Virus record (IMG/VR): IMGVR_UViG_2925908680_000001
Origin: a virus
Taxonomy: Duplodnaviria > Heunggongvirae > Uroviricota > Caudoviricetes
DNA: 64,000 bases
Reading direction: 5' to 3' (one strand)
In this document: one piece after another, positions 30,462 through 43,307 of the stretch
Numbering within the stretch: position 1 is the stretch's first letter
Layout: the number at the start of each line of letters is the position of its first letter
The notes under the pieces: model-generated
Database searches by the model: none
What the model saw: the letters and a program-made list of their open reading frames with translations, nothing else
Told to the model about the DNA's origin: nothing
Position numbers and translations under genes: made by a program

Positions 30462-30520
30462 AAAATGCACCCATTTGTGTTAGATAATTAACATGTATTT
30501 TCTAACACAAATGGTGAGAC

Positions 30521-31426
30521 ATGAGATCAGTCGCTTTCAAAAATATCTTCATCTATCGTCTTTCACGCGAAGTTAGCTGGGATACTGCAGCGGTAAACGC
30601 TGCTCTTGGCAAATTTGTGTTTACCCCATGCGGTTCTCAGGACATGGTTAAAGCTGGTTGGACGCCTGTTCTTGGCAACAACCTCACACATGAATACCAG
30701 GGTTTTCTTCTGATACAGCATAAACGAGAGGAAAAAATCCTACCTTCTCAAGTGCTCAAAGAAGAGTTACAGAAAAAAATCCTGACACTTGAAGAAGAGC
30801 AAGACAGAAAGCTGAAGAAGACCGAAAAAGATTCGCTGAAGGATGAAGTGCTTCACTCTCTTCTTCCTCGTGCTTTCACGAGAAAATCACTCGCCAAAAT
30901 CCTGATCGACCGCAGCAACCATCTGGTATTCGTTGAGGCAAGCAGCGCCAAAAAGGCAGAGGACCAGCTGGCTTTATTGCGAAAATCGCTCGGCAGCCTG
31001 CCTGTCATTCCATTCACACCACGCGAACCGCTGGAAATTACAATGACCGAGTGGTTTAAAAACGGCTTCCCTGCCGGATTTACAGCAGGTGAAGACGCCA
31101 CATTAAAGGGTCTGCTCGATAATGGTGGTGCCGTTCGCTGCAACAAAGTTGATCTACAGTCCGACGAGATTATGTCTCACATTGAGGCGGGGAAAGTAGC
31201 TACGACCGTTGCAATTAACTGGATGGAACGCGCGTCGTTCAGAGTCAACGATGATATGAGTATCAAAGCCCTGACATTCTGTGATGATCTCTATGACCAG
31301 AACGACGATATCGACCGGGAGGATGTAGCACAACGATTTGATGCTGATTTCGTGCTCTTTACGGGCGAATTATCTGCACTGTTTAACGCGCTGGTGGAGG
31401 CCATTGGCGGTGAAGCAGAACGATAA
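30521..31426 (+). CDS. rdgC: recombination-associated protein RdgC homolog
   Basis: Collinear with E. coli RdgC (FKNxxxYRLSRE, FTPCGSQDM, KEEKILPSxV, KKTEKDSLKDEVLHSLLPRAF, LALLRKSLGSLPV). Confidence 0.85.
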   Translation: MRSVAFKNIFIYRLSREVSWDTAAVNAALGKFVFTPCGSQDMVKAGWTPVLGNNLTHEYQGFLLIQHKREEKILPSQVLKEELQKKILTLEEEQDRKLKKTEKDSLKDEVLHSLLPRAFTRKSLAKILIDRSNHLVFVEASSAKKAEDQLALLRKSLGSLPVIPFTPREPLEITMTEWFKNGFPAGFTAGEDATLKGLLDNGGAVRCNKVDLQSDEIMSHIEAGKVATTVAINWMERASFRVNDDMSIKALTFCDDLYDQNDDIDREDVAQRFDADFVLFTGELSALFNALVEAIGGEAER

Positions 31427-32090
31427 TAACCGACAGCTTGTTGTGAGTCTTTGTGATTTTACGGGGGCAATGGTTGCCCCCTGGCTGGAATACGGTGTCG
31501 ATGCCGCTATCGTCGATCCACAGCACTTATCGACCAGTGACGAGCGGATGCAATCAGGTGCCGTTCTGACGCGTATTAGTGCGATCATCGATAGCGATGA
31601 AGTATACGCTTTTCTCCGTAAGAATTTGCAGCGCATCGTGTTTCTGGCCGGGTTCCCACCGTGTACTGACCTGGCTGTTTCCGGCGCGCGCTGGTTTTCG
31701 GACAAGGCTAATAAAGATCCGGTTTTCCAGTTCAAAGCAATGCAGGTTGTCTGGCAGTGTTATGACATTGCAAAGATGATCGGTTGTCCGTACATGATTG
31801 AAAATCCGGTCAGCAAAATATCGACATTCTGGCGTAAGCCAGATCACATCTTTCACCCTTACTTCTTCACTGCATATTGTCAGGAAGATAACTACACCAA
31901 AAAAACATGCCTCTGGAGCGGCCAGGGCTTTGTCATGCCTGATGCCCTAATGGACGAATCATTAGGCAAGCCAGATAACAGAATCCATGCCGCGCCACCA
32001 GGGCCTGACAGGGCTAATTTTCGAAGTGCTACTCCACATGGATTCGCAAAGGCAGTTTTCGAAGCGAATAAGGGGGTGCTCTATGAGTAA
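31410..32090 (+). CDS. short C5-cytosine methyltransferase-like protein
   Basis: PPC-containing motif (FLAGFPPCTDLAVSG) and ENV motif (YMIENPV); start uncertain (GTG at 31410 or a downstream start). Confidence 0.5.
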   Translation: MKQNDNNRQLVVSLCDFTGAMVAPWLEYGVDAAIVDPQHLSTSDERMQSGAVLTRISAIIDSDEVYAFLRKNLQRIVFLAGFPPCTDLAVSGARWFSDKANKDPVFQFKAMQVVWQCYDIAKMIGCPYMIENPVSKISTFWRKPDHIFHPYFFTAYCQEDNYTKKTCLWSGQGFVMPDALMDESLGKPDNRIHAAPPGPDRANFRSATPHGFAKAVFEANKGVLYE

Positions 32091-32988
32091 ATCTATAGCA
32101 AGCATAGCCATAGAAAAACAGGATACGATGGCTGAAATTAGCTATATGCGCACCATTCGGACTCAGGATGAATATGAGCGTCCGATATTCAAATGGGTAG
32201 GTGGTAAATTCTCAGAATTGCCTACAGTGCTTGAGCATCTACCACACGGTAAGCGGTTAATAGAACCATTCGTTGGTGGCGGTTCCGTATTTACGAATGC
32301 AGGATTTCGCCACAACCTGCTTAATGATATTAACGGTGACCTGATTAACTTCTATCAGACATTGCAGCGAGAAGGACATTCGCTTGTCACGCTGTCATAT
32401 AGTTTTTTCCAAAATTACAACAACGCTGACGCTTACCTCGAAGTGCGTGAGGCATTTAACAGAGGAAAGTATGACCAGCTACATCATGCTGCCGCCTTTT
32501 TGTACCTTAATCGGCACTGTTTTAATGGCGTAACGCGGTACAACCAAAATGGCGAGTTCAACGTGGGGTATGGCAAATACAAAGCGCCCTACTTCCCACA
32601 TGCAGAGATGGAGGCATTTTTGGCTGATGACGTACTCAAAAACACGTCCTTTGTATCAGGTGACTTTGCTGGCGTCATCGAGGCGGCTGGTGAAGGCGAT
32701 GTGATTTTTTGCGATCCGCCGTATGAACCGCTGCCGGATACAGAAGGGTTTACCAGTTATTCAGGAAATAGCTTCCGTTTCGACGAACAGAAACGGCTGG
32801 TATCTCTATTGGTGGAAGCCCACCAGCGCGGCGCTAAGGTAGTGATAACAAATAGTGGTGCGCCAAACATCCGTGAACTATATGAAGGAAACGGGTTTAA
32901 AGTACATCATATGGCAGCCAGACGGTCGGTGTCCTGCAAGGCGTCAACACGTGTAGTTGCTAACGATATAATTGCAATAATGAAGTAA
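32083..32988 (+). CDS. dam: DNA adenine methyltransferase (Dam family)
   Basis: KWVGGK, FVGGGSV and DPPY motifs; start ATG overlaps the upstream stop. Confidence 0.85.
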   Translation: MSKSIASIAIEKQDTMAEISYMRTIRTQDEYERPIFKWVGGKFSELPTVLEHLPHGKRLIEPFVGGGSVFTNAGFRHNLLNDINGDLINFYQTLQREGHSLVTLSYSFFQNYNNADAYLEVREAFNRGKYDQLHHAAAFLYLNRHCFNGVTRYNQNGEFNVGYGKYKAPYFPHAEMEAFLADDVLKNTSFVSGDFAGVIEAAGEGDVIFCDPPYEPLPDTEGFTSYSGNSFRFDEQKRLVSLLVEAHQRGAKVVITNSGAPNIRELYEGNGFKVHHMAARRSVSCKASTRVVANDIIAIMK

Positions 32989-33020
32989 AAAACGCCGCAG
33001 TAGCGGCGTTTACTTTTTTA
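32989..33020. terminator. bidirectional rho-independent terminator
   Basis: aacgccgc-agta-gcggcgtt hairpin with T/A runs on both sides, between convergent dam and glnS. Confidence 0.55.
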
Positions 33021-33036
33021 TGTGGCGAAATACCTA

Positions 33037-34698
33037 TTAACCTAACTTCGCCCAGGTATCACGCAGCCCAACGGTGCGGTTAAATACCGGTTTTTCCGCC
33101 GTAGAATGGCGGCTGTCGAGGCAGAAATAACCTTCACGCTCAAACTGGAATGCTTTACCCGCTACCGCTTCTTTCAGCGACGGTTCAGCAAAACCCTGTT
33201 TGATCACCAGCGATTCCGGGTTAATCACCGACAGGAAATCATCCGCAGCACCTGGGTTCGGCACGCTGAACAGACGATCGTACAGGCGGATTTCAACCGG
33301 CAGCGCATGTGCCGCGCTCACCCAGTGAATAACGCCTTTCACTTTACGACCATCTGCCGGATCTTTGCTTAAGGTGTCGGCGTCATAAGTACAGAAGATG
33401 GTGGTGATATTGCCTTCGGCATCTTTCTCCACGCGTTCAGCCTTAATGACGTAAGCATTACGCAGACGCACTTCTTTACCCAGCACCAGACGTTTGTACT
33501 GCTTGTTAGCTTCTTCTCGGAAATCGGCGCGGTCGATCCAAATCTCACCGCTAAACGGCACCTGACGGTTACCCATTTCCGGTTTGTTTGGATGGTTCGG
33601 CATGGTGACCATTTCGCCTTCGCCCTGATAGTTTTCGATGACCAGTTTCACCGGATCGATAACCGCCATTGCGCGCGGCGCATTTTCGTTGAGATCTTCA
33701 CGGATGCAGGATTCCAGCGACGCCATCTCAATGGTGTTGTCCTGCTTGGTCACGCCGATGCGTTTGCAGAACTCACGAATAGAAGCCGCAGTGTAACCAC
33801 GACGACGCAGACCGGAAATGGTCGGCATACGCGGGTCATCCCAGCCTTCAACGTGCTTGTCGGTCACCAGCAGGTTCAGCTTACGCTTGGACATCACAGT
33901 GTATTCCAGATTCAGGCGCGAGAATTCGTACTGGCGCGGGTGAACAGGAATGGTGATGTTGTCCAGCACCCAGTCGTAAAGGCGACGGTTGTCCTGGAAC
34001 TCAAGCGTACACAGAGAGTGCGTAATACCTTCCAGCGCATCGCTGATGCAGTGGGTGAAGTCGTACATCGGGTAGATGCACCACTTGTTGCCAGTCTGGT
34101 GGTGTTCAGCAAACTTAATGCGATACAGCACCGGATCGCGCATCACGATAAACGGCGAAGCCATGTCGATTTTCGCACGCAGGCAGGCTTTACCTTCTTC
34201 AAAACCACCGGCACGCATTTTTTCGAACAGCGCCAGGTTCTCTTCAACGCTGCGATCGCGGTACGGGCTGTTTTTACCCGGCTGCGTCAGGGTGCCGCGG
34301 TATTCGCGGATCTGTTCCGGCGTCAGTTCGTCAACATACGCCAGGCCTTTGTTGATCAGTTCAACAGCATAGGCGTGGAGCTGATCAAAATAATCGGAGG
34401 AGTAACGGATGTTGCCAGACCAGTGAAAACCTAACCATTCAACGTCGTTTTTAATCGACTCGACGTACTCGATATCTTCTTTTACCGGGTTAGTGTCGTC
34501 GAAACGCAGGTTGCACTGGCCTTTATAGTCCTGGGCGATCCCGAAGTTCAGGCAGATAGATTTCGCATGACCAATATGCAGATAGCCATTCGGTTCCGGC
34601 GGGAAACGGGTATGTACTGTGGTGTGCTTACCACTGGCCAGATCTTCATCGATGATCTGACGAATAAAGTTAGTCGGGCGGGCTTCTGCCTCACTCAT
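33037..34698 (-). CDS. glnS: glutaminyl-tRNA synthetase
   Basis: 553-aa translation matches E. coli GlnS from memory with only a handful of substitutions (HIGH and VMSKR motifs present). Confidence 0.95.
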
Positions 34699-41609: not shown

Positions 41610-43307
41610 GTGAATAAAAACATTCAGCCAGCTCGTGATCGCGAGCGCGAGATTATGAATCGGGCGGCAAGCGTCATGGCTATGACCGTCGATCCGACCA
41701 CCGATGCAGCAGGCAACATGATTGCTGACCAGGCAGTAATGATGGAAAACCTGGATAAAGCAATCCAGAAAGTGCCTATGTTTGAAGGCGTAAATCCAGA
41801 GGTTGCACGTCAGATCGCTGGTGGGTGGGCTATGTCTCTGCATGAGTACAAGCGCCAGCATGGTCACTACCCGGCAAGCGATATCCTGGCAAACGCACAC
41901 ATGGCACTTGAACGCCTGATGACTGAATGTGCCAGCGATACACACGTAGGCACTGGCAAGGCAATGTTTGAGTCTGTCGCGCAATCAATGCGTAGCTCTG
42001 ACGGCGTAATGAAAGTTGCTCAATATGCTGCACTAATTCTGCCTGCCTCTCTGGGTGCTGCTACCAGTGATGCCTGTACTTTTGTTCCTTGTGATCGTGA
42101 TGAGTCAAATATTTATGAACTGGTCAACGTAGCAGGCACAAAATTCGGCACCTTCGAGCAAGGTGACGAACTGAATATGCAATCCGCTGGTGTTTATTCT
42201 CAAATGAAGCGCCTGTATACCCTTTCCACGAAAGGGGACGGCAGCACCAAAACTTTCCAGTTCGACATCCAAAATTTTGAGGGGCAGTCCTGCCCGCTGC
42301 GTGCTGGTTATAACAAGCTGCTTATCAACCGCAAACCGTCCAAGGTTGACGACGGCGATGGCAACCTTTATTTCAATGATAAAGACTGCAAAGGCAATGC
42401 ATTCTCAGCTACCGCAAAAGTCGCTTATGACACTGGTGTCATCGACATTACCTTCACTCAAGCGCCAGCAGAAGGGACTGAAATTGCGGTTCAGGTCGAA
42501 ATTAACATCGAGCGCAATCCAAGCCTGATTCCGGTAATCAACCAGGCTATGCGTAAGTATGAAGTTCGACCGTCTCAGTACGTAATTGCTTCCGAACACA
42601 CCGTAATGTCCGCTTCCGATTTAAGCCGTGAACACGGCCTTGAATTGGCGGCACTTCAGTTCTCCGCAATGCGGAACTGGATCTCCCATGAAACCGACAT
42701 CATGCGTCTGCGCACCCTGGTATTCCATACCGTTTATGGTCGTGAATTTGATGTGGCTCTGCCTGAAGCTCAAAACTATGAGTCCTGGGTCGGCCTCCTG
42801 CGCCACGCAGTAAACGCCCTGTCTCAGGAAATGGCAAACCGCACCCTGACCACAGGTATTCGCGGTGGCTTCGCAGGTGGTGACGCAGCTAACTTCCTGC
42901 GTTCTCTGCCTCCACAGCACTTCCAAATCGCGCCGGGCTACGTTCAGTCACCGTATGTGCAGTACATCGGCACCCTGTTTGGCACGATTCGTATTTACGA
43001 AGTGCCGCAGCCTGTGTGTGAGCAATTCAAGGCTCAGGGATATGACTTAGGTCTGGATGACATTTATTTCTATGGTCGCGGTGAAGGCATCGGTAAAGCC
43101 GGGCTGATCGCTGGTGATGCGGTCCCAGCAATCCCGTATGTGCACGAAACCAATCCATCTCTCGTTAACCGCACCACTCTCTGGGGTAGTGCTATCAACG
43201 AAGTCCACCCGCGCAACGGTGAGAATTATTTCGCCCGCCTGCGTCTGACTCGTGCCAAAGAAGGTGCTATCGACATGCTGACAGGCAAGGTTAACGAAAA
43301 AAAGTGA
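41610..43307 (+). CDS. putative major head protein (P1 gp23-like); identity uncertain
   Basis: 565-aa (about 62 kDa) protein upstream of an Ig-like protein and the sheath gene; assignment by size and context only. Confidence 0.4.
   Translation: MNKNIQPARDREREIMNRAASVMAMTVDPTTDAAGNMIADQAVMMENLDKAIQKVPMFEGVNPEVARQIAGGWAMSLHEYKRQHGHYPASDILANAHMALERLMTECASDTHVGTGKAMFESVAQSMRSSDGVMKVAQYAALILPASLGAATSDACTFVPCDRDESNIYELVNVAGTKFGTFEQGDELNMQSAGVYSQMKRLYTLSTKGDGSTKTFQFDIQNFEGQSCPLRAGYNKLLINRKPSKVDDGDGNLYFNDKDCKGNAFSATAKVAYDTGVIDITFTQAPAEGTEIAVQVEINIERNPSLIPVINQAMRKYEVRPSQYVIASEHTVMSASDLSREHGLELAALQFSAMRNWISHETDIMRLRTLVFHTVYGREFDVALPEAQNYESWVGLLRHAVNALSQEMANRTLTTGIRGGFAGGDAANFLRSLPPQHFQIAPGYVQSPYVQYIGTLFGTIRIYEVPQPVCEQFKAQGYDLGLDDIYFYGRGEGIGKAGLIAGDAVPAIPYVHETNPSLVNRTTLWGSAINEVHPRNGENYFARLRLTRAKEGAIDMLTGKVNEKK

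Follow-up and report, generated by a model that had tools for sequence, protein, structure and literature searches.

The methylase locus of IMG/VR virus record IMGVR_UViG_2925908680_000001 (Duplodnaviria; Heunggongvirae; Uroviricota; Caudoviricetes), analysed here as one stretch of 64,000 nucleotides (the window), raises the question of whether a C5-cytosine-methyltransferase-like gene that is much shorter than canonical genes of this class can encode a functional enzyme. This gene overlaps the start of a Dam-like adenine methyltransferase gene, and the initial annotation had proposed that two activities carried by a single Dmt protein in phage P1 are split here and that the C5-like partner may be truncated, inactive, or of altered function. 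Our analysis indicates that the short gene, designated orf64 after its homologue in Escherichia phage D6, is likely to encode a complete, stand-alone compact C5-cytosine DNA methyltransferase within a D6-type rdgC-orf64-dam operon, with the adjoining dam gene likely encoding a complete GATC methylase. The genes concerned are:

30521–31426, + strand: rdgC/hrdC homologue, first gene of the operon (Pfam RdgC, E = 4.5e-102)
31410–32090, + strand: orf64, compact C5-cytosine-methyltransferase-like gene of 226 aa, homologue of D6 orf64, without a conventional target-recognition domain
32083–32988, + strand: dam, Dam-family N6-adenine DNA methyltransferase gene of 301 aa, complete (PF02086, E = 1.9e-56; TIGR00571)
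32083–32090, + strand: 8-bp overlap of orf64 and dam (ATGAGTAA), comprising the orf64 stop and the Dam start, which suggests translational coupling

Reading in a single + strand frame, orf64 extends from GTG 31410 to TAA 32088–32090, while dam, in a different frame, extends from ATG 32083 to TAA 32986–32988; the two separate genes with an 8-bp overlap described initially were thus recovered, with positions 32083–32090 shared by both. The region 30500–33000 presented 99.2% identity to Escherichia phage D6 and 100% identity to the Escherichia coli plasmid pSOI121-1, and was present in 101 of 5,426 complete E. coli genomes, on plasmids in every case. By these sequence comparisons, the source element is a phage D6-type plasmid prophage and a sister element of D6. 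The D6 proteins encoded by orf64 and orf63 are 99.1% and 99.7% identical to the window's orf64 and Dam products, respectively, and gene order, start codons, and overlaps are as in the window, with no material difference. The D6 record (MF356679; Gilcrease & Casjens 2018) already describes orf64 as a 'putative DNA-cytosine methylase', orf63 as a 'site-specific DNA-adenine methylase, similar to C-term half of P1 dmt only', and orf65, the rdgC counterpart, as 'similar to P1 hrdC'; the feature is therefore already known, and both the observation and the gist of its interpretation as a methylase pair are public in the D6 annotation.

Completeness and C5-methylase motifs of orf64

Residues 2–224 of orf64 match positions 8–222 of the 247 positions of PHROG 757 ("DNA methyltransferase") with E = 3.9e-78, and all residues that are invariant in this family (C, E-N-P, K-x-T-x-x-W, and R-S-x-T-P-x-G-F) are present in orf64. 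A word-indexed search, which saturated and gives a lower bound, returned at least 7,926 relatives, almost all of 210–250 aa and none with a Pfam domain; an exhaustive profile search returned 2,624 clusters at 50% identity, mostly of 200–280 aa. Matches to orf64 were found by tblastn in 1,580 phage records, and the phages with homologues include Drexlerviridae, Dhillonvirus, Kagunavirus, Webervirus, and Vequintavirus-like phages. On these comparisons, orf64 is a full-length representative of the compact phage cytosine-methylase-like proteins, which form a very large family. The gene is under strong purifying selection: among D6-like variants, the ratio of nonsynonymous to synonymous substitution rates (dN/dS) is 0.07–0.12, similar to that of rdgC, with a proportion of synonymous differences (pS) of 0.26–0.66. 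The DNA flanking orf64 encodes rdgC and Dam, not missing pieces of a methylase, and orf64 is neither a truncated nor a decaying gene. Neither of the two findings that would have refuted the initial annotation, loss of the catalytic Cys context or origin from a larger frameshifted gene, was obtained.

Four segments of the protein correspond in sequence or position to C5-methyltransferase motifs:

31449–31466, + strand: variant motif I, LCDFTG (residues 14–19), the presumed S-adenosylmethionine (SAM)-binding loop, aligned to F18–G23 of M.HhaI
31653–31664, + strand: motif IV, FPPC (residues 82–85), with Cys85 as the presumed catalytic nucleophile
31800–31808, + strand: motif VI, ENP (residues 131–133), with Glu131 as the presumed N3-protonating residue
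31893–31916, + strand: Y-T-K-K-T-C-L-W (residues 162–169), in the place of canonical motif VIII

The initial description of this protein as carrying PPC- and ENV-type motifs was accurate for the former, which lies within FPPC, and has to be amended for the latter, which reads ENP; its atypical motif I and short length (about 230 aa had been given) stood. In canonical C5 methylases motif I reads FxGxGG and motif VI reads ENV, while orf64 has LCDxTG and ENP. In 98 relatives at 32–50% identity, C85, E131, P133, K164, T166, and W169 were the sole invariant residues; LCDFTG is kept in close relatives, and the motif I loop and the acidic residues of motifs II and III are conserved in the family. The orf64 profile was aligned with hhalign to a small canonical C5 alignment consisting of M.HhaI (identical to PDB 10mh), the N-terminal half of P1 Dmt, and individually fetched phage C5 methylases, giving a match over 164 columns with E = 2.4e-4 and a probability of 43%. 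Motifs I, II, III, IV, and VI are in register in this alignment: C85 falls on C81 of M.HhaI, which places the catalytic cysteine in its expected context, E131 falls on E119 (with ENP on E119-N120-V121), LCDFTG faces DLFAGLGG, D36 adjoins the position of E40, and D61 falls on D60. The predicted structure has a catalytic-domain fold of the C5 methyltransferase type, and the predicted fold and the profile alignment together bring motifs I–IV and VI into line with those of M.HhaI and DNMT3. Against the single sequence of P1 Dmt, the profile also lined up the motifs, in a match that was not significant. Sub-threshold PF00145 matches were obtained for 8 of the 98 relatives (best E = 0.0039), and PF00145 was the only recurrent Pfam family among them.

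The small domain of canonical C5 methylases is missing from orf64. When set beside M.HhaI, M.HaeIII, and DNMT3A/B, orf64 has the smallest C5-methylase-like architecture of those compared and is about 100 residues shorter than M.HhaI; 57 residues follow W169, as compared to about 160 residues after motif VIII in M.HhaI. In the hhalign result, which is unreliable in the stretch around the motif VIII position, no part of orf64 aligned to the target-recognition region of M.HhaI. About 35 residues separate the motif-VIII-like segment from the motif-X-like segment, and this stretch is variable among the relatives of orf64.

Two side observations concern the organization of this protein module. A 548-aa relative of orf64 (P0214) contains an intein with Hint and LAGLIDADG domains whose insertion point lies precisely between the PP and the C of FPPC; judging by this position, the catalytic cysteine would also be the +1 splicing nucleophile. 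Inteins typically reside in catalytically critical sites, and the insertion at the PP/C junction thus marks a functionally critical site. In addition, two structural relatives found in BFVD (A0A6J5NPY6 and A0A6J5SE15) each carry the compact domain as part of a very large phage protein (1,126 aa in one case and 1,397 aa in the other), and one of the two is annotated with a helicase/UvrB N-terminal domain; these structural matches suggest further fusion contexts for the compact methylase module.

Start codons, Dam, and the comparison with P1 Dmt

A GGAGG sequence lies nine nt 5′ of GTG 31410, and the GenBank record of D6 places the start of orf64 at the equivalent GTG. The Prokaryotic Genome Annotation Pipeline (PGAP), as applied to the identical plasmid NZ_AP035758, sets the start of orf64 at ATG 31470 and gives its product as a hypothetical protein. 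This start is probably wrong, since it passes over the GGAGG and the protein would then lack motif I and the first strand, both conserved in all homologues. In the same record, Dam is marked as a pseudogene, "incomplete, missing N-terminus" (window position 32170), a flag that probably reflects the use of fused Dmt proteins as the closest references; the Dam domain is complete despite this flag, covering positions 2–265 of the 267 positions of TIGR00571.

The Dam start at ATG 32083, on which the 8-bp overlap depends, has AAGGGGG upstream. In a diverged relative (L019; 83%/79% identity), the Dam start is a GTG that follows AAGGAGG and overlaps the upstream stop; in a further one (L022; 64%/45% identity), an overlapping Dam start with a Shine-Dalgarno sequence is kept, with an overlap of 19 bp. 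It was considered whether a programmed +1 frameshift might lead from orf64 into the frame of Dam and yield a Dmt-like fusion, since that frame has no stop from 31987 onward and, as in prfB, the junction is preceded by AGGGGG. This possibility was rejected, as a slippery site of the CUU-UGA type is missing, AGGGGG lies at a suitable position to be the Shine-Dalgarno sequence for ATG 32083, and an open stretch of 32 codons is nothing unusual.

The product of dam scored 249.4 bits against TIGR00571 (cut-off 114.85) and 192 bits against PF02086 (cut-off 22); against the E. coli Dam equivalog it scored 240.6, below the cut-off of 441, indicating a Dam-family member and not the host orthologue. It contains CDPPYEP at residues 210–216 and EPFVGGGSV near residue 60, the former including the catalytic motif:

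32713–32724, + strand: DPPY catalytic motif of Dam (residues 211–214), located by sequence and by alignment with P1 Dmt

Dam is 69% identical to residues 478–753 of P1 Dmt, and in its N-terminal extension RTIRTQDEYERPIFKW lines up with RKVKPAAEFERSIFKW of the P1 Dmt linker. The specificity of Dam is presumably GATC, given this identity to the Dam half of P1 Dmt, which is annotated in the P1 record as methylating GATC.

P1 Dmt is, as initially stated, a single protein with two methyltransferase domains (754 aa, with PF00145 at residues ~8–470 and PF02086 at residues 493–725), and the C5-like and Dam activities are split in the window in so far as they lie on separate genes. Like the orf64-dam pair, dmt directly follows hrdC/rdgC and pairs a C5-type with a Dam-type enzyme; however, P1 Dmt is one polypeptide, its N-terminal half (about 470 aa) being a C5 methylase of the canonical PF00145 type in which the target-recognition region is complete, while orf64 is a separate gene. 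BLASTP detected no similarity between orf64 and the N-terminal half of P1 Dmt (best E = 2.9); the D6 arrangement is, on this comparison, not simply a split Dmt, and orf64 is a non-orthologous substitute in a syntenic slot (hrdC/rdgC, C5 methylase, Dam). A homologue search with the N-terminal half of P1 Dmt returned close Dmt relatives only. Among these N-half homologues (e.g., P0271 and P0366), a stand-alone 473-aa copy of the canonical Dmt C5 half was found in P1-like elements, with 123 member sequences, and one Dmt-type C5 methylase of P1-like elements is interrupted by an intein. Judging from these sequences, split and fused forms exist in the P1 lineage too.

Probable relation to phage K42 Dcm and weighing of the explanations

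The enzymatic activity of orf64 is inferred from a 37%-identical relative reported to make 5-methylcytosine (5mC). According to a preprint (bioRxiv 10.1101/2023.08.16.553469) that is cited in later papers, mutants of phage K42 (KarlJaspers-like, Drexlerviridae) that escape retron Ec86 map to a 711-bp gene named "dcm"; expression of K42 Dcm raised 5mC in the multicopy single-stranded DNA (msDNA), as measured by LC-MS (liquid chromatography coupled to mass spectrometry), and triggered retron Ec86/Eco1, while the C82A/E128A/K175A/K176A protein produced neither the 5mC rise nor retron triggering. Warwickvirus tunus (Drexlerviridae) gp63 presented 37% identity over 94% of orf64 (E = 5e-33); the tunus homologue is exactly 711 bp long, encodes 236 aa, and has Cys82, Glu128, and Lys175/176, matching the length and numbering of K42 Dcm. 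K175/K176, two of the four residues changed in the inactive K42 Dcm, are equivalent in place to the lysines of the Y-T-K-K-T-C-L-W segment of orf64. Near-identical copies of the tunus type occur in BASEL phages (e.g., FritzSarasin), where they are annotated 'Dcm-like C5 cytosine methyltransferase'. K42 Dcm thus probably belongs to the orf64 family, as judged from these sequence features. Like orf64, the Drexlerviridae 'Dcm' keeps FPPC, ENP, and K-K-T-C-L-W, with 236 as compared to 226 aa. However, its segment from motif VIII to the C-terminal helix is unrelated to that of orf64, so the target site may differ, and its gene, unlike orf64, does not overlap a D12 Dam gene.

Taken with the motif and family evidence, this relationship makes it most likely that orf64 is an active orphan C5 methylase that is translationally coupled to Dam. 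In the mechanism that we propose, orf64 would provide a Rossmann-type SAM-binding core with motifs I–IV and VI, in which a flipped-out cytosine would be attacked at C6 by Cys85 and protonated at N3 by Glu131; in place of the usual ~100-residue target-recognition domain there would be a segment of some 35 residues. The dam product is the counterpart of the C-terminal half of P1 Dmt together with part of its inter-domain linker. In the lytic phase, phage DNA would be marked by the two enzymes, with Dam serving GATC-dependent functions (e.g., pac cutting as in P1, which needs GATC methylation at pac; review PMC12707154) and the C5 enzyme protecting progeny DNA from host restriction.

A number of observations weigh against orf64 being an active C5 methylase that acts in this way. 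No match to orf64 was found in Pfam, with no PF00145 match even at E ≤ 1, or among the NCBIfam and PADLOC methylase models, and searches of PDB sequences (phmmer and two profile searches) returned chance matches only; orf64 has no QxRxR sequence (canonical motif VIII) and lacks both motif IX and a target-recognition domain. We found no methylome data for D6-like elements in the literature and no experiment on the D6 orf64 protein. The link to K42 Dcm was drawn from gene length and residue numbers, which match in a Warwickvirus orthologue, and the variable segment of D6 orf64 differs completely from that of the K42 type, so specificity is not transferable between them. The K42 assays (bioRxiv 10.1101/2023.08.16.553469) used over-expression in MG1655, a text search turned up no host-Dcm control, and the CCWGG target of K42 Dcm was assumed from E. 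coli Dcm and not mapped. As to lytic expression, P1 dmt is located behind a C1-controlled promoter, whereas a search for a P1 C1 operator upstream of the operon gave no matches in the window, and matches to the P1 late-promoter −22 box were at chance level, with no such box upstream.

Absence of a match to any curated methylase model, a length about 100 residues below that of M.HhaI, and the PGAP annotation of orf64 as a hypothetical protein next to a Dam pseudogene are what would be expected if orf64 were an inactive remnant or pseudo-enzyme, as the initial annotation had considered, be it a shortened C5 methylase or part of a larger gene broken by a frameshift. This explanation is nevertheless highly improbable: orf64 matches a family profile of its own size from end to end and has thousands of relatives of the same length, its dN/dS is low, its catalytic Cys and Glu are invariant, and its flanks encode rdgC and Dam and no methylase parts; the Dam domain itself is complete, with a PGAP flag that probably stems from comparison with fused Dmt. 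We regard it as unlikely, if less so, that orf64 is active with an altered chemistry or substrate, such as near-sequence-independent methylation, methylation of single-stranded DNA or RNA, or transfer of a non-methyl group. In favor of such a role are the lack of a conventional target-recognition domain, with only about 35 residues between the motif-VIII-like and motif-X-like segments, and, from the K42 preprint, the facts that the stem-loop of a single-stranded msDNA is the sole substrate reported so far for any relative and that K42 Dcm is described as probably toxic on over-expression. The LC-MS signal reported there for the relative is, however, 5mC; the match to 8yf3, at 15% identity, reflects a shared fold, none of the data point to an RNA substrate, and a variable segment between motifs VIII and X is as expected for differing sequence specificities.

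About equally improbable is the proposal that orf64 works only with Dam, in a non-covalent complex in which Dam would bind or scan the DNA, making the pair a split equivalent of a bifunctional Dmt-like enzyme. The genes overlap, and their coupled start is kept in the diverged loci L019 and L022; in P1, the same Dam is joined to a C5 domain, and the N-terminal extension of the D6 Dam aligns with the P1 Dmt linker. A direct fusion was also found in P0121 (563 aa; locus L087, 218–1909), in which a compact-family domain (residues 2–252) is joined to a D12 Dam domain (residues 303–546), although this protein comes from a single metagenomic 2-kb contig, where an assembly indel is possible. However, a D12 Dam gene adjoins the family gene in only 18 of 80 viral loci, all of them D6-like, and no match to the two query Dam types was found within 4 kb in the other 62; the K42-type relative was active when expressed alone, according to the preprint, and in some D6-like elements Dam is 99–100% identical where orf64 is 90–92% identical, indicating that the genes recombine independently. 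A conserved partner or specificity subunit was also sought and rejected, with no recurrent neighbour found outside the D6-like lineage; this neighbour survey covers about 47 of the 80 loci, the family gene having been missed by gene picking in 33.

For the locus itself, the interpretation of orf64 as a complete C5 methylase is mainly a clarification, the short gene being intact and ordinary for a phage methylase. The compact family is very common yet missed by Pfam, NCBIfam, and PADLOC models, suggesting that the m5C capacity of phages is probably under-counted, and triggering of a retron defence system has been reported for one member. What interest remains attaches to the family itself, which is abundant and minimal in architecture, and to how so small a protein selects its target cytosine, which can be tested biochemically. 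One rather doubtful but somewhat more plausible idea than the alternatives above is that the compact family represents a minimal C5 methyltransferase without a dedicated target-recognition domain, having either very low specificity or, in the D6 lineage, targeting borrowed from Dam. If the low-specificity route were true, these proteins would do for cytosine what non-specific adenine methylases such as M.EcoGII do for adenine, serving broadly against restriction. On this idea, the existence of both the P1 Dmt and the P0121 fusions would reflect a real functional partnership of m5C and N6-methyladenine (m6A) writers in phage-plasmids.

Operon boundaries, upstream repeat, and neighboring genes

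The operon is flanked by two further features:

30471–30514, no strand assigned: perfect 14-bp inverted repeat (arms 30471–30484 and 30501–30514) in the 59-bp gap before rdgC, a candidate promoter/operator
32990–33011, no strand assigned: bidirectional intrinsic terminator (9-bp stem, 6 of its pairs being GC, and T-runs on either strand)

The three + strand genes rdgC, orf64, and dam are arranged head-to-tail, with orf64 overlapping the 3′ end of rdgC by 17 bp and dam overlapping orf64 by 8 bp. These overlaps and the single terminator suggest that a single mRNA probably yields all three products through coupled translation. The terminator is common to the methylase operon and the convergent glnS gene (33037–34698).

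Each arm of the inverted repeat carries the motif ATTTGTGTTAGAWAAT, for which eight sites (allowing up to 3 mismatches) were found in the window, as compared to 1.6 expected; none of 100 shuffles reached eight. All of these sites are intergenic, those outside 30471–30514 being located at 1920, 3330, 19644, 39527/39551, and 41462. Two pairs of sites, one of which is the repeat before rdgC, share a 24-bp inverted geometry, and a single site is located before the major capsid gene (41610–43307). As RNA, the 30471–30514 sequence folds into a hairpin of −22.7 kcal/mol (z = −4.7). The motif corresponds neither to the P1 C1 operator nor to the P1 late-promoter −22 box. The ATTTGTGTTAGAWAAT repeat may represent a D6-type late promoter or operator, in which case the methylases would be tied to lytic growth.

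A mosaic version of the operon was observed in three loci (L014, L017, and L018), in which the Dam protein is 99–100% identical to that of the window, with 90–92% identity for orf64 and 88% for rdgC; this pattern of identities implies a recombination junction close to the orf64/dam boundary in some D6-like elements. The convergent gene glnS, on the − strand, is a full-length glutaminyl-tRNA synthetase gene carried by the phage-plasmid and presented ~96% DNA identity to chromosomal E. coli glnS, indicating a recently captured host gene; the presence of glnS on D6-like elements has already been recorded in the literature (PMC6799933).

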